A stretch of DNA of 64,000 nt from an uncultured cyanobacterium (GCA_963766075.1 CAVYAN010000048.1:32001-96000), one strand, 5' to 3'; positions 41,268 through 61,519 are shown, counted from the stretch's first letter. A program made the numbers and translations. The notes: generated by a model not told the origin, from the sequence alone.

Positions 41268-41328
41268 TGCTTTTTGTCGTTGGTTGGTTCGCTCATACTA
41301 TCATAAGGAAGTCAAGGGAGTTTCACGG

Positions 41329-43415: not shown

Positions 43416-43606
43416 TGGAGGTTTATATCGAAGTCCGCTGGGGCGAAAAGTGCAATAGCACTAGATGCTGGATGCGGTGCTACTACGCGATCACATCTTT
43501 AGAAACTCGCATGGATGTGGTTCAGCCGTGGAGCGATTCAAGGCGGGCAGCGATCGCCCTGGCGAAAGACCTCAATTACACGGTCGTTAAAAAGCCTCGG
43601 CGGTGA
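43415..43606 (+). CDS. Hypothetical protein
   Basis: TAATG coupling. Confidence 0.45.
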   Translation: MEVYIEVRWGEKCNSTRCWMRCYYAITSLETRMDVVQPWSDSRRAAIALAKDLNYTVVKKPRR

Positions 43607-43727
43607 CAGATTTGCTGTCGTCAATGACAGATTAGTGTCACCAGTGACAGATTCGCTGTCGTCAATAACGAATTAGCGTCATCAGTGACAGATTCGCTGT
43701 CGTTCAGTGACAGTAATTTGTCACCAA
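43603..43727. repeat. Three 41-bp tandem units of paired TGACAG...TGTC palindromic boxes
   Basis: GTGACAGATTYGCTGTCGT at 43603, 43644 and 43685. Confidence 0.8.
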
Positions 43728-43743
43728 TAGTAGGGGTTTCAAC

Positions 43744-44049
43744 ATGGGTTTCAATAAACACGATCTGACCGACAAAATTAGCTGCATGAACCAGCAGTTA
43801 AAGGAAGCAGGGCACGACATCCGCTTTGTTTCCAGCGGGGAAAACGGGCGGCAAGTTGTGAACGCCTGGTCAGTGACGATTGACGGAGACGAATTCAGCA
43901 CAATTCAGTACCAAGTCTGCTGCGGTTCGCCGCGTGAGTGCTCTGAGAAGGCATGGGCCAAGATGCACCAGCTTTTGCATGAGCATTACAAGGATTTGTA
44001 TGAAAAGTTTGTTCACAAAAAAGGAGGACACAATGTCCAGATTCACTGA
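43744..44049 (+). CDS. Hypothetical protein, triplicated family copy 1
   Basis: F-x3-DL-x3-I-x2-N-x4-AG-x-D-x-RF motif. Confidence 0.65.
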   Translation: MGFNKHDLTDKISCMNQQLKEAGHDIRFVSSGENGRQVVNAWSVTIDGDEFSTIQYQVCCGSPRECSEKAWAKMHQLLHEHYKDLYEKFVHKKGGHNVQIH

Positions 44050-44404
44050 AAAAGACTTGCTTGAAGAAATCGGGCGGATAAATGCAGAATTTGAGAAGGC
44101 GGGGCATGACACCCGCTTTATTGTCAGACCTGGATATGGACGCCAGTACATCTACACCCAGTCAATAAAAAGTGTTGAATCTGGCTCCACTGCTCATGGC
44201 CCTACAATTTGCTCTGGGACGCCAAGCGAGTGTTCCGCTGTGGCCTGGTGGAGGATGCACGCCATCCTGCACGATCACTACAAAGAGTTGTATGAGAAAA
44301 CCTACAGCATGTTGCAACAAAAAGCTGCTGAAGCTACGCAGTACAAACACTACAAAGCTCTGTATGAGCAGCTCGCCCAAAGTCAGGGGGGAAACGATGC
44401 TTAG
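44033..44404 (+). CDS. Hypothetical protein, triplicated family copy 2
   Basis: Start MSRFTEKDL after AGGAGG. Confidence 0.7.
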   Translation: MSRFTEKDLLEEIGRINAEFEKAGHDTRFIVRPGYGRQYIYTQSIKSVESGSTAHGPTICSGTPSECSAVAWWRMHAILHDHYKELYEKTYSMLQQKAAEATQYKHYKALYEQLAQSQGGNDA

Positions 44405-44756
44405 GTTCACTAAAAAAGACTTAGCCGAAGAGGTCAAGCAGATAAATGCAGAATTTGAGAAGGCGGGGTGTGATGCTCGCTTTGTTCTTCGTCCTGCATA
44501 CGGACGACAGTACGTCTATGTCCAGTCAGTGAAAAGTGTTGAATCTGGCTCCACTAGTCAGGGCGAGAAAATCAGCGATGGGACACCACGCCAGTGTTCT
44601 GATGTCATGTGGCCGAAATATCTTCAGCTCTTGCGTCACCATTACAAAGAGCTGTACGACAAAACTTATGCGGAGCTGGTGGTATACAAAAATCGGTGTG
44701 GGGAAATCGAAGGAGAGCTAGCACAGTTAAGGCAAAAGCAAGGTGAGAAATCATGA
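44397..44756 (+). CDS. Hypothetical protein, triplicated family copy 3
   Basis: Start MLRFTKKDL; DNA-level similarity to copy 2. Confidence 0.7.
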   Translation: MLRFTKKDLAEEVKQINAEFEKAGCDARFVLRPAYGRQYVYVQSVKSVESGSTSQGEKISDGTPRQCSDVMWPKYLQLLRHHYKELYDKTYAELVVYKNRCGEIEGELAQLRQKQGEKS

Positions 44757-45697
44757 TAAATCTGAGCGAAGCTGCGAGCGAGGCATTACGATGTGCCCGC
44801 ATCTCCCCCTACTCCAAAGGAGGATGGCAACTAATCGTAGACAACCCACTGTCCAAGAAGGACTACGCCGCCCTAAAGCGCGTCATTAGCGAACTGAGAG
44901 GCACATGGAATCGGAAGGCTCAAGCGAGCCTCTTCACCTACGATCCAACGGTGGCGATCGCTAATTACCTAAATACCGGCTACATCCCGCCAAAGAACCC
45001 GCATCATTTGTTCATCACGCAGCCAGACGAGATAGGCATCATGCTTGACGACATGATTGTCGGCCTGCGGGAGTTCAAACGGATGCTGGAGCCCAATGCA
45101 GGCACAGGGGCGATCGCAGACGCGCTGCGGCTACGGTGCCCAGATGCGGAAATCGACTGTGCGGAAATCGATGCCGAGCTTAGAGCTGCCTTGGCCGAAC
45201 GGTTTAACATCATTGGGGATGATTTCCTGAAGGTGACCCCAACAGGGGATTATGACTTGGTTGTCATGAATCCGCCGTTCCATGGCGTGACCTACCAGAA
45301 GCATGTTCGCCATGCTTGGAAATTTTTACGGGAAGCAGGGGAGCTGTTGTCTATCGTCCCTTCCGCCTTTTTGTTTGACGACAAGTTCAGAAACTTTGTC
45401 TTGCAGTGGGGATATGCCGAGTCCATCGGTTCTCCGTTTGAGGGAACTGACGTGAAGTGTCACATCATCCACATGACGAAGTGTGAGCCTCGGACAGGAG
45501 CAGGAGTTGTCGATGCGTGGGTTCGATTCCTTGATAACTCCTACGAGTTTCACCAAGCCTTGATAGGAGCCCACCCGTCTCGGCTGCAAGCGTTGGTCGA
45601 GGAACACATGCGCCGTCTGGCAGAATCTGAGATGGGTACCTTCTACAACGAAGATACGATCTCGGGTCTGATTAAACATTGGAAAGGAGATGAGTAG
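44753..45697 (+). CDS. Amino (N6-adenine-type) DNA methyltransferase
   Basis: MLEPNAGTGAIA (motif I), CAEID, GDDFL, VVMNPPF (motif IV). Confidence 0.85.
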   Translation: MINLSEAASEALRCARISPYSKGGWQLIVDNPLSKKDYAALKRVISELRGTWNRKAQASLFTYDPTVAIANYLNTGYIPPKNPHHLFITQPDEIGIMLDDMIVGLREFKRMLEPNAGTGAIADALRLRCPDAEIDCAEIDAELRAALAERFNIIGDDFLKVTPTGDYDLVVMNPPFHGVTYQKHVRHAWKFLREAGELLSIVPSAFLFDDKFRNFVLQWGYAESIGSPFEGTDVKCHIIHMTKCEPRTGAGVVDAWVRFLDNSYEFHQALIGAHPSRLQALVEEHMRRLAESEMGTFYNEDTISGLIKHWKGDE

Positions 45698-45699
45698 AG

Positions 45700-46284
45700 A
45701 TGACCACCATTACAGAACAGACCTACCGCGATCGCCGCCGACAGGTTTTGGATTGGATAAAAGCCAATCCCCAGCATTGGAACCAAGTCGATTGGCACTG
45801 CCAGACTAGCCATTGTGTCGCTGGCGTGGCTGAAATGTTTTCCTTGAACCTCGATCCCATGAGTCCGTCTGACTGCGAAACAGTCATTTACGACATGCTC
45901 AAGTCCGGTCTAAAGATTCCAACGCCTTTGCGGGCACGGGAATGGATGGGCCTGTCTGAGGCTCAAGCAGACACCCTTTTCGATGCTGACAACAGCCTCG
46001 GCTATATCGAGAAATTGTTCGGCTGCATCGATCCAATTCCAGACAGTTTTGAAAACCTCCCATCCTACTTGTTAGAGTTTATTGCCGCCTATCCCCGCTT
46101 GACGGAGGATCAGCTTGATCGGCTTGTAAAACATGAGGACTGGCAAGTGCGGGAGATCGCCGCCGCGCATCCTAATCTGACGGCCTCTAACATCGATCGG
46201 CTAATAGCCGATGAGGATTCAGATGTGCGGCTTACCGTTAGAAGGCATCCCCTCTTTAGCGGAGGCGTATGCAGCCCAACCTAA
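45700..46284 (+). CDS. Hypothetical protein with C-terminal LRV-like repeats
   Basis: WNQ-x2-W-x-C-x-TSHCVAG N-terminus; AAHPNLT repeat. Confidence 0.6.
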   Translation: MTTITEQTYRDRRRQVLDWIKANPQHWNQVDWHCQTSHCVAGVAEMFSLNLDPMSPSDCETVIYDMLKSGLKIPTPLRAREWMGLSEAQADTLFDADNSLGYIEKLFGCIDPIPDSFENLPSYLLEFIAAYPRLTEDQLDRLVKHEDWQVREIAAAHPNLTASNIDRLIADEDSDVRLTVRRHPLFSGGVCSPT

Positions 46285-47246
46285 AAGACTACGATCGCAT
46301 CCTGGTTGCGTTCAGTGGCGGCAAAGATTCAATCGCCAGCTACTTACACCTACTCGACTGCGGAGTCGATCCCAAGAAAATTGAATTGCATCACCATCTA
46401 GTGGATGGGCGCGAAGGGTCAACTTTATTCGACTGGCCTTGCACTGAAAGCTACTGCCGCGAAGTAGCCAAAATATATGGATTGCCCATTTATTTCAGTT
46501 GGCTTGAGGGCGGCCTAGAGCGGGAGATGTGCAGGGACAATCAGCCCAAGGCTCGAACCTGGTTTGAAACGCCCAATGGGCTTAAATCAACGGGTGGCAA
46601 AGGGAAGCCGGGAACCCGTCGCAAGTTCCCAGCTAAAGTACGTCAGCTCAAAGAGCGCTGGTGTAGCGCCTACGCCAAAATCGACGTAATGTCGGCAGCG
46701 ATCGCGGGACAATCCCGCTTCAACCACACATGGACGCTGGTTGTCACTGGCGAGCGAGCCGAGGAAAGCCCAGGGCGGGCCAAGTATGCGGAGTTTGAGG
46801 AACACCGTTCAGACCGTCGCTCGGGCAACCTGCGCCGCCACGTTGACCACTGGCGTCCGGTTCACAAGTGGGGTCGAAATAGGGTGTGGGAGCGCATGGC
46901 CGTTGAGGGTATCGTGGCGCATCCAGCCTATCACTTGGGGTTTGGCAGGCTGTCTTGCCAGCGGTGCATTTTTGGTTCGCCAAACCAGTGGGCCACAAAT
47001 TTTCACATCTCACCCGCCGAGACGCAGCGCATGGCGAACTATGAGGATGATTTTCAGTTCACATTGGACAGAAAGTTTTCCCTGCCAGAGCTTGCCGCGA
47101 AGGGTACTGTCTATTCAGCGATCGCCCAAAACGAGGGAGCGCTTAGAGCCGCCCTGCGGAGGGAGTACGTGGATAGAATCCTCGTGTCTCCCGATGAATG
47201 GCAGATGCCTGCGGGAGCGTTCGGGGAAAACAATGGTCCAATCTAA
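46269..47246 (+). CDS. PAPS reductase-family (PP-loop) protein
   Basis: VAFSGGKDS, RWCS-x2-AKI, VTGERAEES-x2-R, HPAY-x2-GFGRLSC-x2-CI. Confidence 0.88.
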   Translation: MQPNLKDYDRILVAFSGGKDSIASYLHLLDCGVDPKKIELHHHLVDGREGSTLFDWPCTESYCREVAKIYGLPIYFSWLEGGLEREMCRDNQPKARTWFETPNGLKSTGGKGKPGTRRKFPAKVRQLKERWCSAYAKIDVMSAAIAGQSRFNHTWTLVVTGERAEESPGRAKYAEFEEHRSDRRSGNLRRHVDHWRPVHKWGRNRVWERMAVEGIVAHPAYHLGFGRLSCQRCIFGSPNQWATNFHISPAETQRMANYEDDFQFTLDRKFSLPELAAKGTVYSAIAQNEGALRAALRREYVDRILVSPDEWQMPAGAFGENNGPI

Positions 47247-48882: not shown

Positions 48883-49125
48883 ATGATGAACTTTAGTGTT
48901 TTGTCAAGCGGTTTGGCCGCTCCCGTCAGGAAAAGTCTACCAGGAAGTCCAGAGGACGCCAAAGAACGGCGATTGATGGCCATCCTGGCGATGCAAAAAA
49001 CTGAGCGTAGGAAGCTGGGTTGTAGTTGTCCCCTTTTCCTGGCCAACGGTCGCTCCGAGAACCCCAGGATCGACATTGGCGATGATCGAGACTGCGAGTA
49101 CTGCCACCCTATCAGGAGTTTCTGA
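48883..49125 (+). CDS. Small Cys-containing protein coupled to cas8e
   Basis: RBS AAGGAGG; CSC...CEYC; its TGA overlaps the cas8e ATG. Confidence 0.55.
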   Translation: MMNFSVLSSGLAAPVRKSLPGSPEDAKERRLMAILAMQKTERRKLGCSCPLFLANGRSENPRIDIGDDRDCEYCHPIRSF

Positions 49126-49943
49126 TGAATTTACTAACCGATCCGTGGGTTCCGGTCCTGGAGCAAAACAATCGCCCTGGCGAGGCATCCTTGCTCCGAC
49201 TGCTGACCGATGGCAGCATTTTGGATATAACTGGCCAGCCGATGACCAGGCTGGCCGTCCTGCGGCTGCTCATGGCCATGAAAGCATGGCGCGATCGCGG
49301 TGGTGATGACTTCCAGGAACAATCCTTCAGCCTGAGTACGTTCTTGCAAACTGCGTTGCCCGCAGAATGCAAGGGGCTACGCCCTGAGCTGATTATCCAA
49401 ATGTCCGATAAAAACGGCGTGGCATGGTCCCCGACGCCGCGCAAGCCATCACCACCGGAGATTTTCGCTCAGGCTGTCGTCACGGCGTATTTCTGCGATC
49501 GCGGCGGACTGAAGGCCCGAGTCCCCGGCTTATCCATTTCGGGCCAAACACCGTTTCATGTAGGCACCCAAGTCCGGATGGTGTCTGGGGAAACGGTCTT
49601 GGAGCGCCTCGACAATAATCCTGTTGATTGGGAGCCCGACGACTACCAGCCCCCGTGGGTGGGCGGCGTGAAATTTCCGGAAGGTAGCAAGCCGCGCCAT
49701 GACTTAGAGCTGCTGCTCTGGCCATGGCGCAGAGTCTGCATTACGGACAATGGCGTTGTTGTCGCACCAGGGGCGGTCATGTCCACCGAGGTGAAAGACC
49801 CTTGGGTGCTGGGGAAAGCGCTGGTGCGTCATTATCGTGACAAACCTGAGGAGGGATTTGAAATCACAAATCTGGCCTTGCAGCAGGCGTCACCCTTGGC
49901 CTGCTGGATCTCTCGGCCCTGCAAACAAAGTGTCGTATTCTGA
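49125..49943 (+). CDS. cas8e: Type I-E large subunit Cas8e/Cse1, shortened (272 aa)
   Basis: N-terminal NLLTDPWVPV is characteristic of Cse1; RLL, W-x-WRRV and DPW motifs; heads the cas6/7/5 operon. Confidence 0.75.
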   Translation: MNLLTDPWVPVLEQNNRPGEASLLRLLTDGSILDITGQPMTRLAVLRLLMAMKAWRDRGGDDFQEQSFSLSTFLQTALPAECKGLRPELIIQMSDKNGVAWSPTPRKPSPPEIFAQAVVTAYFCDRGGLKARVPGLSISGQTPFHVGTQVRMVSGETVLERLDNNPVDWEPDDYQPPWVGGVKFPEGSKPRHDLELLLWPWRRVCITDNGVVVAPGAVMSTEVKDPWVLGKALVRHYRDKPEEGFEITNLALQQASPLACWISRPCKQSVVF

Positions 49944-49948
49944 AAACT

Positions 49949-50497
49949 ATGGAAATGGAAGCAGTTTTAACCAAAATCAGAGGAAGCCTAGGGCACAAAG
50001 CCGTCATGGCCGGTTTTGAACATTCCGAGTCCCCCACAGCCAGGGCGGATTGGAACATTTTGTTCCGGCATGACGGCGAAAATACGTTGATTCAGTCAAC
50101 CGTTGCGCCGACTTACCGCCGTCCATTTGAACAAAAACCCCTCCCTCTCGATCCGATCGCGGGCGAGTCCTACTTTTTCAGGGTGGCTATTAACGCTATC
50201 TCCATTGAAAAGACCGAATCAGGACGGTCCAAGGAGGTGCGTTGTGACCCTGAAATTTGGCTGCAATTCCAGCAGGCAAAGCGCGGCTTTGCTATAGAAA
50301 AACTCCTTTCTGCGGTTAGCGCTCCGATTGTCGAAACATCTGGAGGCCGCAGGTTTTTTGTCAACCGTTTTCACATAGAAGGCGTTTTGATTGCTGAAAA
50401 TGCCCAACTTTTGGGCAAAACGCTTCTCGAAGGACTGGGAAAATCCAGATCCTACGGATGCGGATTGCTCTCCATCTTGCCCATTAATCAACCATAG
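49949..50497 (+). CDS. cas6e: Type I-E crRNA endoribonuclease Cas6e/Cse3
   Basis: N-terminal His (GHKAVM), ILFR, LIQS-x3-P, FRV-x2-N, G-loop GLGKSRSYGCGLL. Confidence 0.9.
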   Translation: MEMEAVLTKIRGSLGHKAVMAGFEHSESPTARADWNILFRHDGENTLIQSTVAPTYRRPFEQKPLPLDPIAGESYFFRVAINAISIEKTESGRSKEVRCDPEIWLQFQQAKRGFAIEKLLSAVSAPIVETSGGRRFFVNRFHIEGVLIAENAQLLGKTLLEGLGKSRSYGCGLLSILPINQP

Positions 50498-50505
50498 GAG
50501 TTTTC

Positions 50506-51810
50506 ATGTTCGTTGCCGTTCACGCAATTCAATCCCTGCCTCCCTCCAACCCCAACCGAGGGAAAGATGGCGAGCCCAAGCACTCCCCGCTCGGTGGGGT
50601 GGTCAGAGCGTGCCTGTCCTCCCAGTCCCAGAAACATGCGGCGCGGCAGTGGTACCACGCTGCTTTTGAATCGGATCCTTCTGGATTTGCCTACCGCTCC
50701 AGAGAGTGGCATGGGCAGCTTGCAGCCCAACTTGGATGGGCTCCCGATCACCAAAAAGACAACATAGCGAGGTTAATCCTCGCGCTGCTCAACAGCAGTC
50801 CGGCGAATTTATTCGCTAATGCGATCTCCATGCAGAACCTAATTTTTATGGGCCTTGCAGAAATGCAGGCGATCGCCATTATGTCCCAGTCATGCGCAGA
50901 AGCGCTCGGATTTCTGTCCGACGATTTTGAGGCTTACAAAGTCTGGGCTGCAAACCAAAAAACGATCGTAGAAGAGCCTGAAGAACCCGTAGAAGAGCCT
51001 GAAGAACCCGTAGAAGATGCAGGGAAAAAGAAGGCTAAATCTAAAAAAGCGGAATTTGGGCGGCACCCCACTCCTGCCAAGTTGAGGCCCATAATTCAAT
51101 GCATCAGCAGTGCCATGGGCAGCACTGTCCCTGGCGATATAGCCCTGTTTGGGCGGATGATGGCGTCCTCCGGATTTGGCAGCACGGACGGCACGGTAGA
51201 AGTCGCCGCCGCGATCGGGGTGGGAGCCCTTGGTCGGTCTAGGTCGGATAAGGGGTGGGTGCCCGGTCAAGTTGACTTCTTCTCAGCAGCAGACGATCTC
51301 GCTCTTCCCAACACGTCTGGGGCGGCGATGCTGGGAGAAACACTGTTCGCAGCCCCAACGCTGTACCGATACGCCAACGTGAACTGCCATGAGGCTGCAA
51401 ACCTCATAGGTAATCGAGAGGCTGCTGCCGAAGCGATCAGGCGGTTCGTCAACGGGTTTCTGCGCGCCCTCCCCACGGGGCACTCTCGGCAGTTTGCCCA
51501 TGGGGTTCTGCCGGAGTTTGTCCTGCTGGAAGTTTTGAAGACGGCCCCTTACGGCTACAGCCAAGCATTCCTATCACCTATCAATGGCCCTGACACTTCG
51601 GTGCCTACCGAGTTCGGAGGACTGTCGGTCAGCCAGCAGGCGGTGAACGCGCTCATGCGCCACAGGATGAACTCTATCGAGTTGTTTGGCGGGGCTCCTG
51701 AGAGCTTCGCGATAACGGCTCTATCAACCCATTGGGGGACGGAAGAGGTTCTACCCCTAGACAAAGCGATCGCCTCCGTCCTGGCTCACCCTGGCGTGCT
51801 GGAGAAATAA
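50506..51810 (+). CDS. cas7e: Type I-E backbone subunit Cas7e/Cse4
   Basis: HAIQSLPPSNPNR-x3-G-x-PK, GG-x2-RA-x2-SSQS-x-K, DIALFGRM, DFFSAADD, LYRYANVN, LPTG. Confidence 0.93.
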   Translation: MFVAVHAIQSLPPSNPNRGKDGEPKHSPLGGVVRACLSSQSQKHAARQWYHAAFESDPSGFAYRSREWHGQLAAQLGWAPDHQKDNIARLILALLNSSPANLFANAISMQNLIFMGLAEMQAIAIMSQSCAEALGFLSDDFEAYKVWAANQKTIVEEPEEPVEEPEEPVEDAGKKKAKSKKAEFGRHPTPAKLRPIIQCISSAMGSTVPGDIALFGRMMASSGFGSTDGTVEVAAAIGVGALGRSRSDKGWVPGQVDFFSAADDLALPNTSGAAMLGETLFAAPTLYRYANVNCHEAANLIGNREAAAEAIRRFVNGFLRALPTGHSRQFAHGVLPEFVLLEVLKTAPYGYSQAFLSPINGPDTSVPTEFGGLSVSQQAVNALMRHRMNSIELFGGAPESFAITALSTHWGTEEVLPLDKAIASVLAHPGVLEK

Positions 51811-51811
51811 T

Positions 51812-52258
51812 ATGCCCTTCACAATGACCCTTTCCGGGCCAATGGGAGGCTTCGGAGATACACCCAGATTGGTGCATCGCTTTGTTCAGGAGGCTCCCCC
51901 GCGATCGGCCATCATCGGCCTAATTGCCAACGCCTATGGCCTGAGCCGCGACGATGATTTTGGGTTCCTAGATTCCCTGAGATTCAGAATCATTGAACAA
52001 AGCTCGGGTGAGGCTGTAGTTGATTTTCAGACGGTGCGGAATGCCGTCACCGTTGATGGTAAGCCGGGGCGGAATGCCATCACGTATCGGCACTATTTGC
52101 CAGACTACAAGCTGGTGTTGGAAGTTGATGGCCCGGAGGAATTGCTCAAGCAAGTGTTCCTCAATCTGAAATATCCCCACCGACCGCTTTACATTGGACG
52201 GCGCTGTAATGTTTTAGATCGGCCTGTCGTTGCTGGGGATTTTCCAGGGATAGGATAA
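51812..52258 (+). CDS. cas5e: Type I-E Cas5e/CasD, shortened (148 aa)
   Basis: LSGPM-x2-FG, P-x-RSAIIGLIANAYG-x2-R, DFQTV, TYRHYL-x-D, P-x3-LYIGRR. Confidence 0.9.
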   Translation: MPFTMTLSGPMGGFGDTPRLVHRFVQEAPPRSAIIGLIANAYGLSRDDDFGFLDSLRFRIIEQSSGEAVVDFQTVRNAVTVDGKPGRNAITYRHYLPDYKLVLEVDGPEELLKQVFLNLKYPHRPLYIGRRCNVLDRPVVAGDFPGIG

Positions 52259-52261
52259 GTT

Positions 52262-53458
52262 CTCCAAAAGTTGGAGGTTGGTCTGCATAGCATTGACTCA
52301 GCACGCTGACTCAGCACGCTCCACTCCAATCTTTGGAGGTCGATCTGGACAAGAGAGGCACTAAATCAAGCTATTGGGAAGGCGGCAGATTACTGCACTC
52401 CAATCTTTGGAGGTCGATCTGCGCTACAGCTTATCCCTCGGCCACGCCGCCCATCTGCCCCGCCCTGCGGGGGTTGCTCTAGAATCTTGTTTCAAAATGT
52501 TTTGTGCCCCATCTACTGGGGGTTAATCGTACAAAAATTTTGATTAGATTGGGCACCGTTGCCCTATCTAGCGGGGGTTACTCGTAAAAGCTCTACGAGG
52601 TTCAAGATGCTTTGTGCCCGCTTTGCGGGGTTCATCATGCAAAGATCGCGACCTGCCCTGAACTGTGCATTGCCCCAGCCTGGGGGGTTTTTAGGGCAAC
52701 GATTTGATCGCCCCACCCCGTGGGGGTTTGTCGCAAGTAAACCGTGGACCGTGCGTTGCCCCAAACTGTGGGGGTTTGTCGCAAGCTTACCTTAGCGCTC
52801 AGGGTTGCCCAATACCCCACCTTGTGGGGGTCCGTCCATCAGCGCGATGGAAGCCTGGGAGCGGTAAATAATTGCCCCGCACAGTGGGGGTTTATTGTAC
52901 AAAGTCTCAGAGGTTCAAAATGTTTTACGCCCGCTCTGCGGGGTTTTTCAAGTAGTTCATGCGTGCTTTCACCCCACACCATGGGGGTTTATCGATGAAC
53001 TCTAGTCATGCGTGCTTCCGCCCCATCTAATGGGGGTTTCTCACCGAGAACTTGGGAGAAGCCATATTTCCCCACCCGTGGGGGTTTATCCACCAGTCCG
53101 AACTTTTCATCCGCGATCGCCACTCCACGCCGTGGAGGTTTGTCACTCTCTGCGCTTACTGCGATAGTGAACATTTCCCCACCTGCGGGGGTCGATCTTC
53201 TCCAGAGGGCAGCATCGCAAATAGGCTGGATTCACACCCTCTCTGAGGGGTTTTTCGTTCAACTTAACCAGCTCGAAATGGTATTGCTTGCTCCATGGCG
53301 TGGAGGTTTGTCAACAAAGTTGAGTGCGTCCCCACTTGTGGGGGTTCTTCTCTGGCCTTGGCCGTCTTTTTTCAGCCCCATGTTATGGGGGTTCTTCTCT
53401 GGTCAATAATCGACCCTCTCCACGCCGATCTGCACAGCCCCACCTATGGGGGTTAATC
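52262..53458 (+). CRISPR. Degenerate CRISPR-like array, block 1 (23 hairpin repeats)
   Basis: Units of a 5-7-bp stem (for example CCCCAC-N3-GTGGGG) plus a GTnnnTC tail start at 52262, 52324, 52398, 52458, 52507, 52562, 52617, 52673, 52711, 52759, 52815, 52875, 52930, 52972, 53021, 53070, 53123, 53177, 53237, 53291, 53330, 53376 and 53438. The array begins 3 nt after the cas5e stop. Confidence 0.85.
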
Positions 53459-53475
53459 CTTATCAGGAGAACTAC

Positions 53476-53748
53476 ATGGATAAAAAGCTGCTTATTTGTG
53501 TTTGTGAAAAATTCATCGACCTTGACACGGTTAGAGCACTGTTACGGGGTGATAGCGTTCGAGATTCTTCCCTTGATCTCCTGTTTTTGCAGGAAGATTG
53601 CTTAGGCGGTAAATTTCGATTGCGAGGCGCAACAGAAGATTCAAAAACTTTTGTAGACTGCGAGTTCTCGTATCTTGAAACGAATGAAGAAGTTTATCTT
53701 GAAATAACCGCACTGAGAACCAGTCCGATCCTCGACTCCCTGCCCTGA
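53476..53748 (+). CDS. Hypothetical protein (90 aa) embedded between array repeats
   Basis: RBS AGGAG then ATG 53476 (MDKKLLIC...). Confidence 0.7.
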   Translation: MDKKLLICVCEKFIDLDTVRALLRGDSVRDSSLDLLFLQEDCLGGKFRLRGATEDSKTFVDCEFSYLETNEEVYLEITALRTSPILDSLP

Positions 53749-53756
53749 GAGCACAG

Positions 53757-53948
53757 CCCCACCTGTGGGGGTTTATCCATGATAGGGCTGCACATTCCTG
53801 CGGATACTTGCCCGCAATCGCGGGGTCAGTCCCGTTCCACAGGGAGGCACAATTTTTGTAGCCTGGTCACCCCGCCTTGCGGGGGTCGATCGCTTCCAGG
53901 CTAGTAGATACACTCTCTCTGAGTCTCCACTCCGTGGAGGTTTTATTC
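53757..53948 (+). CRISPR. Degenerate array, block 2 (4 repeats)
   Basis: Hairpin units at 53757, 53811, 53870 and 53925. Confidence 0.8.
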
Positions 53949-53964
53949 AAAACATAGGAGTCTT

Positions 53965-54300
53965 ATGCTTTACCAAGATTACGACTACGAAGCTGTTGGC
54001 GGCGTAAAAATCGCCAAAAACGCAGCAAACATACAAACGGGAAACAAAATAATGCTGGCCTTCCTAGGGCCAGATGAAGATTGCTACTACATTGAAGCCC
54101 TCCCCGATGAGGCTGGGATAATCCGCGCTGGCCGGGAAGCGGACGGCGATTACTACGCAAGCTTCGAGCCAGTGGTTGGGGAGAGCTGCTGTGTGAGGGA
54201 GCACTCCTGCATTGATGATGCCCTATCTGAACTGGAGGCTATTTTGCTCACCTTGGATCCGCCGCCGCAATGGCGATCGCCGCAAACGCTGGCGCTGTAA
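53965..54300 (+). CDS. Hypothetical protein (intact paralog of 48502..48865)
   Basis: RBS ATAGGAG; shared TGN-x-I-x-L-x-F-x-G-x2-EDC, IRAG-x-E, YAS-x-EP, EH, PQ-x-L motifs. Confidence 0.75.
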   Translation: MLYQDYDYEAVGGVKIAKNAANIQTGNKIMLAFLGPDEDCYYIEALPDEAGIIRAGREADGDYYASFEPVVGESCCVREHSCIDDALSELEAILLTLDPPPQWRSPQTLAL

Positions 54301-54322
54301 CTCGTGAAAATCCTAATGACCT

Positions 54323-54730
54323 ATGAAAATCCTGAACCTAGAAACGGGCGCAACAGCAACTATTGACACCGAAAACATCCCTGAAGAAAATCGGTTAATT
54401 CCCGAGAATCCGTTAGACCTTTTGGCTTTGACTGCTTTTTGCATTCAGAGCAACTGTAATGGGGTGGTTTGGACGACGAACAGGCAAGAAGATGGCAGCA
54501 TAAGCGTCATGCTTGACACCTTGGTTTTTGGATATGACGGCTTCGCCAAAACTACCGTAGGAATTCAACCTGCGGTCTTCGACCCGATGACTTTTATAGA
54601 TCAGGAATCAGTTCATCTCACGTTCTGGGTTTCGTTAACCCACTGCAAACTTAAGCCAGAGGCGTTCTGGCTCACAAGCCTGCGCGGATTTCAGCAGACT
54701 AACATTGTGGGTTATCCCATCGTTTTTTAG
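54323..54730 (+). CDS. Hypothetical protein
   Basis: 135-aa ORF ending 12 nt before block 3. Confidence 0.65.
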   Translation: MKILNLETGATATIDTENIPEENRLIPENPLDLLALTAFCIQSNCNGVVWTTNRQEDGSISVMLDTLVFGYDGFAKTTVGIQPAVFDPMTFIDQESVHLTFWVSLTHCKLKPEAFWLTSLRGFQQTNIVGYPIVF

Positions 54731-54742
54731 CCCCATTTCCCG

Positions 54743-54991
54743 CCCCACTCAGTGGGGGTTTATCTCTAATGTTGACTGGAAATAAAAAGTGCTTCGCCCC
54801 ACTCAGTGGGGGTTTGTCGGTAATCATCAGCGCCATAGTTCTTGCGCATCAAGCTCCACATCGTGGAGGTGCCTCGGCAAAAGCGCTAGCATGTCGGGCT
54901 GCCAGGTTGAATGCTCCACTCTGTGGAGGTGCTTCGGCAAAAGCACTGGTCGGTTGGCGATAGCTAGCGCTCCACGCCGTGGAGGTCTTTC
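54743..54991 (+). CRISPR. Degenerate array, block 3 (5 repeats)
   Basis: Hairpin units at 54743, 54797, 54854, 54914 and 54970. Confidence 0.82.
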
Positions 54992-55037
54992 GACAACAGA
55001 AATTCAGACCGATACTTTATTCTTGGAGACTGAAATT

Positions 55038-55586
55038 ATGAAGCAACTAACATCCGTAACGCTCCCTTACGAGCAGTTTGCAGAGATCGCAAATTATGAA
55101 GTGGAGGGCTGCGTCGAGGCTGCCATTAGTCTGGGCTGTGCCGACTTCGCCAAGCGCGACATCCCAGACGGATCGGGCGCGTTCCCTGTCCACCTGAGCC
55201 TGAAAACACCAGAGGGTCGTTTTTTGGGATCGGGTGCGTATTGCGGATTCGTCCACGGCTTCGATCAGGACATTTTAGAACGGCTTTGGCAGGCTGCTGG
55301 GGTCACCCTGGATGAGGATACTCTGTACCAGTCCTGCTTTGATGTCAACATAGGCACTCATGAAGATAATCACGGCGCTGTCTGCGAGGACTGCCTGAGA
55401 GCGGGAGGAGGGGTCTATATCGAAGGATCGGAAGATACTCCGTGGGAGTCACTGAGCGAGCTTGATCGCCTCGGGCTTACTTTTCGCCGTTTGCTGCCAG
55501 AGAGCGATCGCGCAGTCTGTTGGTCATGTAGGCAAATGATTGACGAGTCAATCGCGTCTGCTGCGGAAAATTGTGCCGCTGAGTGA
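55038..55586 (+). CDS. Hypothetical protein with two CxxC motifs
   Basis: RBS GGAG, start MKQLTSV (the track's 54789 start runs through the array). Confidence 0.65.
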   Translation: MKQLTSVTLPYEQFAEIANYEVEGCVEAAISLGCADFAKRDIPDGSGAFPVHLSLKTPEGRFLGSGAYCGFVHGFDQDILERLWQAAGVTLDEDTLYQSCFDVNIGTHEDNHGAVCEDCLRAGGGVYIEGSEDTPWESLSELDRLGLTFRRLLPESDRAVCWSCRQMIDESIASAAENCAAE

Positions 55587-55679
55587 GCCTTGACCCCAAC
55601 CCAGTCGTGACAGTTCTGGAGTTAAAGAATCCCGGCAACGGGACTGGCAAAATTCATCAAAGCCAGTAAGGAGAACAAC

Positions 55680-55964
55680 GTGAACATCAAGTCTTGCGCG
55701 ATCGCCATCAATAGCGGAGAGGACGCCCACGCATCCATTCTGGCCATGTGTCAGCAGCTAGACATAGCCAATCTGCCTGAGCCTGAAGACAAAATGCGCC
55801 AACTGGCGTACACGGAAAGCGGACTAAGGGTCGCTTTGATGTTGAATCACCAATGGATTCAGGCTCGGGCGGAAAAACTGATTCAGCCTTGCTTCAATCG
55901 GATTGCTACTGAGGAGTTTGGCGTGGGTATGCGTCAAACTCGCGCAATGGTCGCACATGATTAA
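55680..55964 (+). CDS. Hypothetical protein
   Basis: RBS AAGGAG, GTG start. Confidence 0.6.
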   Translation: MNIKSCAIAINSGEDAHASILAMCQQLDIANLPEPEDKMRQLAYTESGLRVALMLNHQWIQARAEKLIQPCFNRIATEEFGVGMRQTRAMVAHD

Positions 55965-55987
55965 CCAGTGAACATAGGAGTTGAAAA

Positions 55988-57052
55988 GTGAAAATCAATC
56001 GCCCAGTTGGAGTACTACTGCCAATTCATGAAACGTATTACGGGGATATAAACCCTGGCGATCTAAACAGTTTCTTGGCTTGTGCCGGAGAAGCGTTGCG
56101 AACGTTCGGGTTCTCTCGGATCGAAACCTTAAACCCTGACACAGACCGAGAGCGGGAGCTGTGGGGCGTTGGCGAAATCTTGGTCCAGTCGGATGAGATT
56201 ACGAGCTGGGATGACGGCAAAGATGTGGGGATAACGGTTGATTGGCTTGACCTAATCGACGCCGATTCAGACGAAATATTGAAGGTTCTAGAATCCACAT
56301 GGATGAAGGAACCGGCGATCGTGGCGATGAACTATCTCGAAGAAGATGGCTACAAAGACCGTGGAAACTCCGAGTTTGGAGTAGTTCGCTCCTACAGGCA
56401 TCACAGTCAGGAATTTGTCCCAGGAATTCCCCTTTCTAGGTTTTTGAGCGAGGGATGGGTAAAAGAGCAGCCTAGCAGCAAGGCAAGCATCAGTGTAGCC
56501 CCTGGCGGGGGGATTCAAGTCCCGCGAGAACTTGACTTTGTTCGATGCTGGGAGCTTTTTGAACGCCAGTCGCTAGACAACCCTAGGTGTTTTGAGTATC
56601 GGCAGGTATGCCTCACTGAGGATTCTCGCTACAGAAAATGGGTAGAGCAGGGCTATCCTGCCTTTTCGGTAAACTTTTCCGACTCTCAGCGCCGTTTTGT
56701 CAACGAAGCAAAACTATCGGAAAGAGCGGCATTTGTTCACTCGATAGTAAGCCGCCCATCCGAATTCCAAAGGCTGGTATCGGAGTTTGGGCATACCCTT
56801 GCTGTCGGCCACTCAGTCTGGATCTGCACGGATGCAGAAGGCCGCGAGGGATTTTATATGTGGCGAACCGAAGGGGGCTGGCACGGGGCTCAATTCGGAG
56901 TGCAAGAGCTGAAAAGGCTTGGAGTGAGCGATCGCTTTGAAAAGCTGAGGGAAACTTTAAGTATCGAAACGAAAGGATTTCCTGTAGCCGGAGAGGGCGT
57001 TGGCAGATACGCCGATGTGGAATTCCTCAAATCTACGGGATGGTTTGAGTAG
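55988..57052 (+). CDS. Hypothetical protein (354 aa)
   Basis: RBS ATAGGAG, GTG start; ends 13 nt before block 4. Confidence 0.7.
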   Translation: MKINRPVGVLLPIHETYYGDINPGDLNSFLACAGEALRTFGFSRIETLNPDTDRERELWGVGEILVQSDEITSWDDGKDVGITVDWLDLIDADSDEILKVLESTWMKEPAIVAMNYLEEDGYKDRGNSEFGVVRSYRHHSQEFVPGIPLSRFLSEGWVKEQPSSKASISVAPGGGIQVPRELDFVRCWELFERQSLDNPRCFEYRQVCLTEDSRYRKWVEQGYPAFSVNFSDSQRRFVNEAKLSERAAFVHSIVSRPSEFQRLVSEFGHTLAVGHSVWICTDAEGREGFYMWRTEGGWHGAQFGVQELKRLGVSDRFEKLRETLSIETKGFPVAGEGVGRYADVEFLKSTGWFE

Positions 57053-57065
57053 TTGATCCTCAGCA

Positions 57066-57441
57066 CCCCACCTTGTGGGGGTTTGTCAAAGTTTATAAAC
57101 GGGCTGCGGTATTTATTGGCGACTTAAAGCCTTTGCCCCACGCCGTGGGGGTTTATCAACGGTCTGCGGCAGCCTTGTGACGTAAAGCCTTCGCCCTACA
57201 CTGTGTAGGGGTTTATCTTCGATCCAACTCTATTGGCTTAACGGCTCTCTTTGCCCCACGGTGTGGGGGTTTATCTTTGCTCCAACTCTACCAGCTTAAC
57301 GGCTCTCTTTGCCCCACGGTGTGGGGGTTTATCAAACGGTTCTATAGCCAAATCAACCCTCACCCCGCTCAGTGGGGGTCTATCTTTACGGCAGCAAACC
57401 CCCACCGGGCTTACATCACCCCACACTGTGGGGGTGCGATC
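57066..57441 (+). CRISPR. Degenerate array, block 4 (7 repeats)
   Basis: Hairpin units at 57066, 57136, 57194, 57254, 57312, 57363 and 57419; the most homogeneous block (CCCCACnnnGTGGGGGTTTATC). Confidence 0.88.
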
Positions 57442-57515
57442 GCATCGCGCTTGAAATGATTTACACCAAACATAGGAGGCTTATACCCGCCTTTCAGCAT
57501 TCAAATAAATGTCCC

Positions 57516-57835
57516 GCCGCGATCGCCACTGGTCGCGGCTTTTTTTATGGAGAAACCCCAAAATGCAAACCAAAATCACCAAATCTAAAGCCGCCGAAAT
57601 CGCCCAGAACCTGATAGAGGAAGGCGAGGAAAACACAGGAGTCTGTCTAGCCTGCGGAGAAGTCCATGAAGGGATTGAGCCCGATGCCCGCGAGTATAAA
57701 TGTGAAGCCTGCGGTCAACATAAAGTTTACGGATCAGAAGAAATTCTTCTAATGTTCGGACCTGCCAACTTCTAAAAACCACTGAATGCAGACTGCCGCG
57801 ATCGCCACTGATCGCGGCTTTTTTATGGAGAAAAC
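57516..57835 (+). repeat. Duplicated ~40-bp hairpin-polyT-RBS module
   Basis: GCCGCGATCGCCACTGRTCGCGGC-T6/7-ATGGAGAAA at 57516 and 57795. Confidence 0.8.
57563..57775 (+). CDS. Small zinc-finger protein
   Basis: G-x-CLACG...IEPDAR-x-Y-x-CEACG-x3-VYG. Confidence 0.7.
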   Translation: MQTKITKSKAAEIAQNLIEEGEENTGVCLACGEVHEGIEPDAREYKCEACGQHKVYGSEEILLMFGPANF

Positions 57836-58084: not shown

Positions 58085-58448
58085 TGAGGTCTTGGACATT
58101 GAATGGTTGGACAAAGTGGGTGACCCGCTCACAGTTGCCACAACCATTTGTGGAATTGTGAACGGTTCGATTTGTGCGAAAGAAATCCTAGAAAAGTCAG
58201 AGGGTGTATTCCCAAACCCAATCGACAAGCTATCTATACCTGAACAGAAGTTGTTTGCTATCAATGATGTCATCCAAGGTTTTGGGACGGAAGCCGCTTG
58301 GCTGGACGACAGCTCAGACTATCCCAGCGCCGAGTATATCGACGTTGGAGATCCCTATGTAGCAACCATTCTGTATGACTACCAGACTGACACCTTTCAG
58401 GTTACCTGCTTAGCAGATTGGCTTAACCCACAGGAGAAAGCAGCATGA
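58074..58448 (+). CDS. Acidic hypothetical protein
   Basis: GTEA...YIDVGDPYVATILYD; overlapping chain. Confidence 0.6.
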   Translation: MLIDEVLDIEWLDKVGDPLTVATTICGIVNGSICAKEILEKSEGVFPNPIDKLSIPEQKLFAINDVIQGFGTEAAWLDDSSDYPSAEYIDVGDPYVATILYDYQTDTFQVTCLADWLNPQEKAA

Positions 58449-61400
58449 TTAGCGTTGCCAGAGTCCGCGAGATTGAACAAGTACTAGAAGCAAAAGCGGA
58501 TGAGTACAAAGGAATAAGTAGGATTACATTCCCAGAGATCTTAAAGTTTGTGCTCCTTAAAGAGGCAAATATTCTCGATCAGATCGATTTCGATATTGTT
58601 GAGGAATTCGTACTTGAAACATTCAACGACTTTCCTGAAGAGTTCATCGCCAAACTCAAGGAGAAATACCCCGAAATCCTCGGACTGGAAAAGATTCTGG
58701 AAGAAGCCGATCCCAAAGACGTTCGCGCAGAGATCGAAGCCAATTCAACCCTAAACGACGAACTGGGATTAGTCCCTCAGATGGCTCGAATGCCAGAGGA
58801 AGAACTGTTCAAGCTGCTGATCGATTACGGCTTGCTTCCCAGCTTCAACCTCTACGACCTCCAATCCAATCGCACCGACAATAAAAACCTTGAAACCCCC
58901 ACAGAGCAATGCTTAACACCGCCCGCGACCACTGCAAAAACCGTCGCCGGCGACGGTGCAAAACCGCCAAACCCTCATCCAGAAAGCACCCTGGAAACAG
59001 TGCCCATGACAAACGAAGTCGTCAATTACCGTTACCGCGTAGAGGCTGCCCTAACAGCGATCTCTGCTGTCGTCAGAAACCAGGGCCAAAACTACACAGA
59101 AGCGATCGCCCAGTTTGGTGGATGGGGCTCGCTGAGCCGATTGTTCACCGAGCGGCCTGACATGCCCGAATGGGAGAAACGGGCTTGCGGCACCCTGAAG
59201 GGACTCCTAAGCCCACAGGAATACGCTTCTGCACGGAATCTGACCCTTAACAGCTTCTACACCAGTCCCGAGGTTATCAGGGCGATCTGGGCGTTCGTTT
59301 TGTCCACTGGATGGGAAGGTGGCGAAGTGCTTGATCCAGGATGCGGCACCAGGCGGTTTTGGCAGTACGCCCCAGAAGCGGCACGCCAGATCGCCACTGG
59401 CTACACAGGCGTTGAAAAGGACTACACAACCCACCTTATGGGGCTCGCCTTAACCCCTCTGGACGACCAAGGAAAGAGTCTCAATGATTTTTCCGAGCAT
59501 GGCGACTTCCTCACATGGGCCACCGATCTCCAGTATCACCTGGTGATCGGCAACTTCCCTTTTGAAGATGGCGTAACGGCAGGCGTCCCGGACCTTGGCT
59601 TTGGCCTCAAGGTGGCTTTGCATGGCCGCTTCCTGCTGCGTGCACTTAGTCATCTGCGCCCTGGCGGCTTGCTGGCCGTCATCACCAGTCCGGGCCTGAT
59701 GGACGGCAGTTCAAAAGCCTACCAAGGGCTCCGAGCCCGTGTAGAAGCTATGGCGGTGTTCCTGGGGGCTGTGCGGCTCCCAGAACAGACCCACGCCAGT
59801 TCTGGTACGGAGTGCACCAGCGACCTAATCATCTTGCGCAAGCGATCGCCCGCTGACAACGCGGATAACGAATTCACCGAGGCTAGTGTGCCGTGGCAAA
59901 AAGTTTACACATCCCCCAAACTTAATGCCTACTGGAGCGCAAACCCCACCCACCACCTTGGTCAATTTGTGCCCAACCGCACCCGTGGCGGGCAGGGGGC
60001 GGGCGCAAGATGGACCGGCAGCTATGCCGAACTGATTTCCGCACTCAACCAAGCACTTAAATCAATCCAGGAGAACTATATGTCCAGAATCAGAAAGACC
60101 CGTGACGACAGCCCAAAGACAGGCTGGCAGCACGTTGAGGTGACCTACAATGCCGAGCAGGATGGGGTTGAAATTCGCTTCTCAGATGCGATTCCCAAGA
60201 TGATCAGCGGATTGCTGGGCTGGGCCGGATTCAAATTCCATCGCGACAAGTTCTGGTGGGTGAAGGTGTCACCAGAGGTTCAGGGTTGGTTGCAGAACTC
60301 ATTTGAGGAAATCCTCCTGAACGCTGGGTACGAAGATGTCCCAGAAGACGAGCGATCGCTGACCGCCAAGGGGTTTGCCTCCTGCGAGGAATATTTTGTA
60401 ATTCCCTCACTTCAGCCGCCAGTCCAAGCGGCTGACCTCCCTCCCTCCGCAGAAGAGCCGCAGAAAGCTGGCGGAATAGAACCTTGGGCCTTCAGCTCAG
60501 AGGGGGCGAAGCTACTGCGACAAACCTTTGAGAAACGCGAGTGTGTCGAGCCAGTAGTAGAAATCCCAGCACACCCTACCCCTGGATCGACCCTGCGTCA
60601 GGTTGAGCCGTATTTCGTCAGATCGCAGTTTTTTGGCGCTTACAAGCGCTCAAAGATTGAAGAGTATGAGCGGGATCTGGTAGTAGCACTGAACAACGAT
60701 CCGGCATCCATAAGGCACGAGTTGCTCAGAATCACCTACGAACTTTTGCTGCCGACTGAAGAAGAATATCTAGCGTTCACTCAGGCGCTAACGCAAACCC
60801 GCGACTGGATGTTTCACATGGGTGGATCATCCTCCCTGCACGAGACTGATTATCCAAACTTGAGCCCTGAAGAGGAACAGGAATGGCGGAAATACCGATT
60901 TGGCGATAACTGCCTTATGGTCCGCGCACCGCAAGACATTCCGCGCCACATGGATTTTGTGGTCAACCCCGAGGGGAACACTTACGCCAAATACGTGTAC
61001 ACCAGTCCCATTCCGGTCGAAGCTCCTACAAAGGAAACCTACCAATCGATTCTCCATGGCCCGACCGAGGAAGAATGGATAGCGAAACAAACCGCTCAGG
61101 CTCAAGCCCAGGAGCCCGAGCCTGAAACACCGCCCGTCACTGGATTCGACCTTGACGACTTTTTCTCAGACATCATGGGCCTGGTCGCTGACGCAACTCC
61201 CCCTGAGCCCTGGATGAAAGATGCCGTGCAAGCACAGCTTGAGGAATTGGCGAAGCGCCCGCGCATTCCCTCGTTTCGAGCAACCCTGACAACAAAATGG
61301 ATACCTTTGCTGAACTTCCTGAACCTGGGAAGTTTGTTGGGAATGCTCACGATGGGACAAAAGCTTGCTGAACTAAAGCGACAATCCCCCGATATTCCTG

Positions 61401-61519
61401 GCCTCGATCCCTTGTCCAAAGAGATGCTTGAGATGCTAGCGCGGCTCAACATCTTCCCCGAACAGGGAGGGGCGATCTCAAAACCCGCAGGACAGGGAGG
61501 GGCGATCGCAAAAAAGTAA
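58445..61519 (+). CDS. Multidomain protein containing a DarB-like N6-adenine methyltransferase domain
   Basis: FGGWG, L-x2-LLS-x2-EY-x-SAR-x3-LNSFYTSP, VLDPGCGT, GVEKD, VIGNFPF, LRPGG, FLGAVRLP, DLIILRKR. Confidence 0.8.
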   Translation: MISVARVREIEQVLEAKADEYKGISRITFPEILKFVLLKEANILDQIDFDIVEEFVLETFNDFPEEFIAKLKEKYPEILGLEKILEEADPKDVRAEIEANSTLNDELGLVPQMARMPEEELFKLLIDYGLLPSFNLYDLQSNRTDNKNLETPTEQCLTPPATTAKTVAGDGAKPPNPHPESTLETVPMTNEVVNYRYRVEAALTAISAVVRNQGQNYTEAIAQFGGWGSLSRLFTERPDMPEWEKRACGTLKGLLSPQEYASARNLTLNSFYTSPEVIRAIWAFVLSTGWEGGEVLDPGCGTRRFWQYAPEAARQIATGYTGVEKDYTTHLMGLALTPLDDQGKSLNDFSEHGDFLTWATDLQYHLVIGNFPFEDGVTAGVPDLGFGLKVALHGRFLLRALSHLRPGGLLAVITSPGLMDGSSKAYQGLRARVEAMAVFLGAVRLPEQTHASSGTECTSDLIILRKRSPADNADNEFTEASVPWQKVYTSPKLNAYWSANPTHHLGQFVPNRTRGGQGAGARWTGSYAELISALNQALKSIQENYMSRIRKTRDDSPKTGWQHVEVTYNAEQDGVEIRFSDAIPKMISGLLGWAGFKFHRDKFWWVKVSPEVQGWLQNSFEEILLNAGYEDVPEDERSLTAKGFASCEEYFVIPSLQPPVQAADLPPSAEEPQKAGGIEPWAFSSEGAKLLRQTFEKRECVEPVVEIPAHPTPGSTLRQVEPYFVRSQFFGAYKRSKIEEYERDLVVALNNDPASIRHELLRITYELLLPTEEEYLAFTQALTQTRDWMFHMGGSSSLHETDYPNLSPEEEQEWRKYRFGDNCLMVRAPQDIPRHMDFVVNPEGNTYAKYVYTSPIPVEAPTKETYQSILHGPTEEEWIAKQTAQAQAQEPEPETPPVTGFDLDDFFSDIMGLVADATPPEPWMKDAVQAQLEELAKRPRIPSFRATLTTKWIPLLNFLNLGSLLGMLTMGQKLAELKRQSPDIPGLDPLSKEMLEMLARLNIFPEQGGAISKPAGQGGAIAKK

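Follow-up and report, generated by a model that had tools for sequence, protein, structure and literature searches.

What keeps a CRISPR array recognisable when almost all of its repeats differ, and what might such an array still do? The question is raised by a 64,000-nucleotide (nt) stretch of DNA from an uncultured cyanobacterium (GCA_963766075.1 CAVYAN010000048.1:32001-96000; hereafter the window, meaning the whole stretch), in which 39 hairpin units lie directly 3' of a cas8e-cas6e-cas7e-cas5e operon. All 39 units that a first-pass annotation had placed at 52262-57441 were recovered (52262-57440, plus strand), and its assignment of the array as type I-E-derived and adjoining cas6e and cas5e held. 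The gene set, the anatomy of the array, the paralogy among its spacers and the fixed positions within its repeats can be read directly from the DNA. Our preferred reading, to which we assign a probability of about 0.6, is that the locus encodes a minimal phage-borne type I-E Cascade without a Cas1-Cas2 spacer supply, whose variable-length complex, free of Cas11 and Cas3, would bind DNA and repress transcription.

Gene content and array anatomy

The operon consists of four genes.

49125-49943, plus strand: mini cas8e, 272 amino acids (aa); Pfam CRISPR_Cse1, E 1.9e-12, N-terminal domain of Cse1 only
49949-50497, plus strand: cas6e, 182 aa; Pfam PF08798, E 6e-19; His16 and the C-terminal Gly-rich loop retained
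50506-51810, plus strand: cas7e of a distinct clade, 434 aa; Pfam PF09344, E 1.8e-54; 20 close proteins
51812-52258, plus strand: short cas5e, 148 aa; Pfam PF09704, E 1e-20, profile positions 6-155 of 217; TIGR01868 above cut-off

All four are intact, open and conserved family-wide; against the TIGR equivalog cut-offs, Cas7e and Cas6e fall below and Cas5e just above. His16 of Cas6e, which we take to be the catalytic histidine, is invariant in six of six aligned homologues. The structural model of mini-Cas8e (predicted local distance difference test score 90) aligns over its full length to residues 1-371 of Escherichia coli Cse1 (a 489-residue chain) and 7-368 of Thermus thermophilus CasA (Z 16-22), and as modelled the protein lacks the C-terminal helical bundle of Cse1, the part on which Cas3 docks. 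Short Cas8e proteins form a family: a search of 1.84 billion representatives gave 21 clusters at E<1e-25, of which 16 measure 251-291 aa, 3 are smaller and 2 carry a fusion to Cas5; no mini-Cas8e was found in 400 sampled genomes of the phylum or in plasmids. In P0143 and P0146, mini-Cas8e and mini-Cas5e are joined in a single protein of 445-450 aa.

The window is positions 32001-96000 of a 116-kb contig (C48) in a 5-Mb assembly (G000) that is 85% complete, which limits every absence claim for the host. The operon has no open reading frame (ORF) for Cas11 (Cse2), and the Cas11 profile PF09485 had no match at E<=1 in G000, this profile being an insensitive one whose control passed in 1 of 14 genomes. 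Cas3 is likewise missing from the operon, and its HD-domain profile (PF18019) had no match in G000. Cas1 was not found in G000, in four related phage records (G487-G490) or in the 13 loci of the same clade described below, many of them short contigs; Cas2 had no separate search. No second cas7e was found in G000.

The array itself falls into four blocks, with 23, 4, 5 and 7 units in turn. Between them lie inserts of 298, 796 and 2074 nt, which hold one, two and three ORFs respectively; the first of these ORFs has a strong ribosome-binding site (RBS).

52262-53458, plus strand: array block 1, units 1-23; spacers 17-52 nt; starts 4 nt past the cas5e stop codon
53476-53748, plus strand: ORF of 90 aa with strong RBS, between near-identical units 23 and 24 (28-nt direct repeat, family D10)
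53757-53946, plus strand: array block 2, units 24-27
53965-54730, plus strand: two ORFs within the array (111 and 135 aa), function unassigned; no Pfam, NCBIfam or PHROG match
54743-54991, plus strand: array block 3, units 28-32
55038-57052, plus strand: three ORFs within the array (182, 94 and 354 aa), function unassigned after Pfam, NCBIfam and PHROG scans
57066-57440, plus strand: array block 4, units 33-39; spacer pairs 33/34 and 35/36 are diverged duplicates
57516-57539, plus strand: intrinsic-terminator-like hairpin closing the array region, from a consensus scan only; second copy at 57795-57818

The units come from a scan anchored on the 3' arm, which returned 45 candidates in the interval; six non-hairpins were dropped. 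A scan for hairpin plus GT..TC found one further unit on the contig, and no two units within 120 nt of each other on any other contig of the assembly; the array is thus not a product of chance. Spacer lengths are irregular throughout. Spacers 4/6/12, 13/14, 33/34 and 35/36 are paralogous (9 of 741 spacer pairs at z>4), which directly shows that units have been duplicated. A 6-nt periodicity in spacer length was not established in the window (p 0.063); in the related phages it beats a jitter null, but a period of 5 scores equal or higher. Repeat finders with the usual identity thresholds would probably miss arrays of this kind, and such systems may therefore be under-counted.

Several smaller features of the array were noted. 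Spacer 22 contains a collapsed repeat (53398-53437; the 3' arm is missing, the 5' arm and loop remain), and spacer 1 a 13-nt tandem duplication (52284-52323). The RBS region after unit 23 (53459-53478) matches the region of the cas8 translation start in G487-G489 at 18 of 19-20 nt, a likeness that may reflect a common RBS style or chance. A 17-nt RBS-containing segment 3' of unit 27 (53949-53967, with a start codon) recurs 3' of unit 39 (57468-57484, without one). The two terminator-like hairpins are near-identical (57516-57545 and 57795-57824), contain the highly iterated palindrome HIP1, and have an RBS with a small ORF after each of them. Among the embedded ORFs, the 90-aa one had no PHROG or NCBIfam match, and the 354-aa one has one relative (72% identity) and gave no usable match in an ESM Atlas search. 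An Rfam search returned a single match (E 0.07) outside the array, which was disregarded.

Contig C48 shares its GC content of 0.53 and its HIP1 density of 1.4 per kb with the remainder of the assembly, which marks it as cyanobacterial, HIP1 being a marker of that group. The contig carries genes for a major head protein, maturation protease, portal, both terminase subunits, ParA and an integrase; it is therefore a temperate phage, possibly plasmid-like. Flanking the cas locus (window 40022-47246 and 58445-61519) are genes for a RadC/JAB protein, a small methyltransferase, a PAPS-reductase-domain protein (PAPS, 3'-phosphoadenosine-5'-phosphosulphate) and a 1024-aa protein with an N6-methylase domain, which possibly make up a counter-defence or DNA-modification region.

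Repeat conservation, covariation and selection on the RNA

The hairpin-plus-tail sequences are distinct in 37 of the 39 units, and every one of the seven stem variants and five tails quoted in the first-pass annotation is present. That annotation held that the repeats conserve structure and not sequence. This is wrong, as sequence is largely retained: 196 of 234 stem cells are consensus, and the tail reads GTnnnTC in 35 of 39 units (T6 is kept in 37 and C7 in 35, while G1 and T2 were fixed by the search itself), so that the GT...TC handle and most of the stem are conserved as sequence too. The loops, described as unconstrained, prove to be constrained in both length and composition, with 3 nt in 31 of 39 units and pyrimidines at 85 of 114 loop bases. 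Six apparent 2-nt loops are probably better taken as five base pairs with a 4-nt loop.

The remaining stem cells comprise 21 double Watson-Crick changes, 6 G.U, 4 A.C, 3 other mismatches and 4 double deletions. Stem pair 3 is invariant, pair 1 varies by deletion only, and pair 2 is C-G in 30 units and U-A in 9, with no single-sided state. In the 28 units with a 15-nt hairpin, 97.6% of cells pair and 16 cells are changed on both sides, values of which neither is reached in 500 shuffles; this test takes no account of relatedness among units, nor does RNAalifold, which gives a 6-bp hairpin as their consensus. We therefore also consider a custom, R-scape-like, tree-aware null (150 replicates, with the tree built from the same 29 columns). 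Among all pairs, pair 2 alone is significant under it, and E is about 1 for pairs 5 and 6; when these two are taken as pre-specified pairs, no more than 0-3 of the 150 replicates match them. By parsimony, about 6.5 joint substitutions (about 2+1+1.5+2) and about 3 joint deletions stand against 15 single changes. Covariation is thus real but modest, and inflated by unit duplication: the double changes reported earlier stand, whereas their description as extensive compensatory covariation overstated what are few independent events, with one pair passing the tree-aware test.

Selection at the level of RNA is seen in the related phages G487-G490 (three records 69-79% complete, one 38%), whose units were detected by sequence alone, blind to pairing; 152 remained after de-duplication. 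Their inner five pairs hold 32 G.U, 1 A.C, 3 other mismatches and 1 double change, and the free outer pair holds 12 G.U and 20 A.C (Fisher p 1.3e-7 against the inner pairs, the units being related). This opposite ratio at the outer pair argues against a strand bias in mutation. In a comparison of 38 orthologous unit pairs, the inner stem has diverged by 1.3% and GT...TC by 0%, the loop and the handle centre by 31% each, and short spacers by 6.9%; four-fold sites among the relatives diverge by 12-23%, below the loops and above the short spacers. That loops change faster than four-fold sites would be compatible with the earlier proposal that divergence may limit recombinational loss. G.U intermediates of the window's C-G>U-A and A-U>G-C changes are found both in the window and in the relatives. 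It is the handle and the G.U bias, not the paired substitutions alone, that prove RNA-level selection. What stays fixed, the hairpin and the GT...TC handle, is also what Cas6e and Cas5e were earlier proposed to need.

Relatives and the minimal clade

Searches with a Cas7 alignment yielded 154 loci, and 95 of the loci examined carry cas1. Most of the Cas7 loci listed are canonical I-E systems with near-uniform repeats. The Cas7 of the window falls in a separate clade in a quick tree (Shimodaira-Hasegawa-like approximate likelihood ratio support 100); this tree excludes locus L006, which was assigned to the clade by its short Cas8e. None of 13 clade loci checked, many of them short, carries cas1. 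On these sequences, the minimal type I-E Cascades form a distinct clade.

Arrays in this clade span the range from uniform to fully diversified. L077, L079 and L006 are cas1-less and have near-uniform repeats with regular spacing; L076 is regularly spaced as well, yet shows 14 loop types in 19 units. In G487-G490 (L181-L194), each phage has several dispersed mini-arrays with heterogeneous repeats and spacers mostly of 13-26 or 38-56 nt. The first-pass annotation proposed that repeats diverge once freed from Cas1-Cas2. In line with this, no cas1 was found in G000 or the four phage records; but the uniform repeats of the cas1-less L006, L077 and L079 mean that loss of cas1 need not cause divergence, so that it permits divergence and does not force it. 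Uniform arrays in cas1-less relatives suggest that spacers may be acquired in trans. A few observations on related arrays are added here. The L076 array (11234-11700) lies within the operon, between cas7 and cas5. In G487-G490, many spacers of 13-16 nt are common to several phages while the loops differ, and the long spacers end with a constant 13-nt extension before the hairpin. L115, L117 and L120 are full-size I-E loci outside the clade that have heterogeneous repeats and no cas1 match in the available DNA. Pattern scans of viral contigs for tandem repeats of the window type and for the core of spacers 35/36 found none.

Most relatives also carry a gene with a PD-(D/E)xK fold between divergently oriented cas8 and cas6 (L079:1783-2460, L077, L076:8604-9320, L002-L004, L081 and L114). 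Its product is a stand-alone protein of 214-238 aa, of which the N-terminal 123 residues match PD-(D/E)xK folds (NucS: Z 8.8, root-mean-square deviation 3.1, 98 residues aligned); the C-terminal half is poorly modelled. An ESM Atlas search with it gave only a PD-(D/E)xK lead scoring below 0.9. From these models, the protein is a candidate for the nuclease that replaces Cas3 in the minimal I-E clade. A profile of it found nothing on contig C48 (best E 1.4).

Proposed function, alternatives and known systems

In the mechanism that we favour, which draws processing, assembly and repression from known I-E biology, the cas operon and the array would form one transcript, Cas6e would cut at the 3' base of each hairpin to leave the handle GUnnnUC(N) for Cas5e and Cas7e, Cas7e would coat spacers of variable length, and mini-Cas8e would read the protospacer-adjacent motif. 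Since Cas3, Cas11 and the C-terminal bundle of Cas8 are all missing, we propose a complex that attaches to DNA but leaves it uncut, its most likely effect being to repress transcription of genes of the host, of competitors or of the phage itself. Units would evolve by duplication, deletion, point mutation and template switching at hairpins, without repeat copying at a leader end; purifying selection would retain only the inner stem and the GU...UC handle; and the double substitutions would represent a handful of events, some via G.U and some probably one-step corrections of an arm, multiplied by unit duplication. Published work on type I-E Cascade reports that it gains or loses one Cas7 per 6 nt of spacer (PMC6859484) and that complexes with altered spacer lengths still repress genes (PMC5009729).

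Several results weigh against this reading. No target of the window spacers was found in G000, either by short-word BLAST or by a seed scan that leaves every sixth position free, and the best seed matches there barely exceed those of shuffles (mean excess 0.22 matches); matches to the phage itself are at chance (2 of 39 at p<=0.05), and block 1 (52200-53500) compared with phages, plasmids and 90 family genomes gave nothing convincing. At its level of completeness, G000 could be missing a host I-E system. According to PMC6859484, shortened-spacer Cascades failed to lock R-loops, so that DNA binding here may be weak, and weaker still for lack of Cas11. The evidence for selection on RNA comes from relatives, and their Cas7 shares only about 35% identity with that of the window; the window itself has no G.U bias (6 G.U vs 4 A.C), and its hairpin dominates the predicted fold in context in only 28 of 39 units. 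Finally, the orthologous pairs were picked for having similar spacers (<=30% mismatch), a choice that biases the spacer figure low.

Individual spacer matches were also considered and put down to chance: on contig C43, one of 17 nt for spacer 15 and one of 15 nt for spacer 38, a 15/15 match of spacer 10 on C72 (about 0.4 such matches are expected over 39 spacers, by estimate), and a match of spacer 11 to secY in two family genomes. Matches of spacer 16 are explained by its HIP1 word. In the relatives, 8 of 265 spacer-genome comparisons stand out against 12 shuffles each. One of these is a spacer common to three phages, which agrees at 20-22 of 25 positions with a site on its own phage or on a sister phage; the site lies about 200 nt downstream, just past the array (L003:13644-13870; G488 17479, 17277), and ahead of an ORF read by eye as integrase-like, a possible case of RNA-guided autoregulation. 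Another of them matches a sister phage at 21 of 25 positions. Own-genome matches of 74 short spacers were not above chance. Separately, one further spacer partly matches the cas8 gene of its own phage.

Could the paired changes instead be mostly a DNA artefact, generated by template switching at quasi-palindromes and then multiplied by unit duplication? We consider this possible, if not probable, and it can coexist with a functional array. Template switching is reported to homogenise arms and to invert spacers and loops (PMC8604942, PMC5941160). Reverse-complement loop pairs exceed a column-shuffle null in the relatives (6 vs 2.2, p 0.004) and among the dominant loops of 69 canonical arrays (5 vs 1.9, p 0.008); in the window the signal is weak (3 vs 1.2, p 0.055), and plain reverse pairs are as many as reverse-complement ones (3 and 3). 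The hairpin of unit 20 is one change away from the inverse of that of unit 17, and there is no G.U route to the double transversions (C-G>A-U in units 1-3, G-C>U-A in unit 19) or to the paired deletions (units 7, 13, 19 and 25), both of which are in keeping with template switching. Loop inversions thus show DNA template switching on these hairpins, and the earlier argument from double substitutions to selection on an RNA hairpin is insufficient by itself; its conclusion is nevertheless backed by the G.U versus A.C asymmetry in the related phages. A strand-symmetric DNA process cannot yield 32 G.U against 1 A.C in the inner pairs with the opposite ratio outside, and cannot fix an unpaired GT...TC handle (0 changes in 152 positions). 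Beyond this locus, the dominant loops of different species in canonical I-E loci (e.g. L008/L009, L012/L030) are often mutual reverse complements (5 pairs, 24 loop types), suggesting that CRISPR repeats in general may evolve through inversion of the hairpin loop.

The locus might also be a decaying relic, its Cascade dead or dying and its spacers neutral, with hairpins kept as terminators, for RNA stability or for processing of the embedded mRNAs by Cas6e alone. The failure to find protospacers, the irregular spacers, the collapsed repeat and the missing PD-(D/E)xK-like gene would all fit, as would the fact that every ORF block comes after a hairpin unit and a strong RBS and that several units score as terminator-like. 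We think this unlikely, given that the reading frames of the four cas genes are all uninterrupted and conserved across the family, that the handle read by Cas5 and Cas7 is kept as well as the Cas6 hairpin, and that the short spacers of relatives are more conserved than four-fold sites. Slightly less likely still, in our judgement, is an anti-CRISPR decoy or in-trans module that mixes with, titrates or borrows a host I-E system, whether by inhibition resembling that of RNA anti-CRISPRs (Racrs) or by recruiting host Cas3, Cas11 or Cas1. The repeats do belong to the same family as host cyanobacterial I-E repeats, Cas7e occurs in 6 of 89 family genomes, the uniform arrays of cas1-less relatives suggest in-trans acquisition in some lineages, spacer acquisition in trans is reported for type IV-A (PMC11656645), and Racrs mimic repeats (PMC10651486). 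Yet G000 has no other cas7e and no cas1, cse2 or cas3 match, the phage brings its own Cas6, Cas7, Cas5 and Cas8, this Cas8e is without the C-terminal bundle, and Racrs are solitary repeats without cas genes.

A bolder version of the repression model, which we hold to be doubtful, is that a lineage of temperate cyanophages carries a programmable library of transcription factors: a four-protein Cascade without Cas11 or Cas3, whose arrays would grow by duplication and mutation in place of Cas1-Cas2, whose guides (as short as 13-16 nt in the relatives), kept by purifying selection, would set the size of the complex through their length and silence host and self genes, such as one with an integrase-like promoter, whose repeats would be actively diversified against recombinational loss, and whose Cas6e would free the embedded mRNAs.

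Whatever its function, one Cas7 clade with uniform (L006, L077, L079), loop-variable (L076) and diversified (window, G487-G490) arrays is a natural experiment on what repeats need once Cas1-Cas2 copying stops, and it maps the requirements of Cas6e and Cas5e to the inner five pairs and GU...UC. The unusually small I-E binder (Cas8e 272 aa, Cas5e 148 aa, no Cas11) is a possible compact scaffold for CRISPR interference (CRISPRi), and non-identical repeats would suit stable multiplex arrays. A caution also follows: covariation in tandem hairpins can stem from duplication and DNA template switching.

Compared with canonical type I-E (E. coli Cascade; cyanobacterial L012 and L020), the window has homologues of Cas8e, Cas6e, Cas7e and Cas5e, and a CCCCAC-loop-GTGGGG hairpin followed by a 7-nt GT... 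handle, the stem consensus being equal to that of canonical cyanobacterial arrays. In contrast to these systems, no Cas11, Cas3 or Cas1 was found (Cas2 not being searched separately), Cas8e is about 270 aa instead of about 500 and Cas5e only 148 aa, the hairpin is 15 nt instead of 16, a constant 5-nt flank is lacking from the repeat, 37 of the 39 repeats are distinct where canonical ones are nearly uniform (54 of 54 hairpins identical in L010), and spacers of 17-52 nt and ORFs occur within the array. We found no literature description of this short-Cas8e variant: the 2025 classification (PMC12669027) and PMC10910872 name I-E2, I-E3 and I-E5, and this form is not among them in the available text, whose supplements and extended figures may list it. 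I-E2 (Cas5-HNH) and I-E3 (Cas11-PD-(D/E)xK) share the I-E Cascade core, and I-E2 typically lacks Cas3 (PMC12669027, PMC10910872). The Cas5e of the window lies wholly within the Cas5 profile match and is too short for an HNH domain. As in I-E3, the window's relatives have a PD-(D/E)xK-fold gene, here beside cas8 and cas6; unlike I-E3, the window has neither Cas11 nor a PD-(D/E)xK gene that could be found, and the nuclease-like protein of the relatives is encoded by a separate gene, which may or may not contain Cas11.

Among mobile systems, plasmid type IV-A is similarly borne by a mobile element, has no adaptation module or nuclease, and is described with proposed crRNA (CRISPR RNA)-guided repression and possible in-trans spacer acquisition (PMC11656645); the window differs in its I-E-type subunits (Cas8e), in the lack of a DinG gene seen in the operon, in its temperate-phage setting and in its diversified repeats. 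Viral mini-arrays and Racrs (PMC11656645, PMC10651486) are also virus-encoded repeat units, and the window's relatives hold several mini-arrays per genome; as described there, however, those are host-identical or solitary repeats without cas genes, whereas the window brings its own Cascade of four genes together with 39 divergent units. Type I CRISPR-associated transposons (CASTs) likewise use a minimal Cas3-less Cascade as a DNA binder, but no tnsB, tnsC, tniQ or Mu transposase gene is present among the 30 ORFs of window 40022-63958, the remaining contig having been partly scanned. The window system is I-E by descent, but Cas8 length, Cas11, Cas3, Cas1 and the uniformity of repeats set it apart from canonical members; nor does it belong to I-E2, I-E3, the CASTs or the Racrs. 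We regard it as a new type I-E variant, and this minimal system as a more interesting result than the covariation of its repeats.

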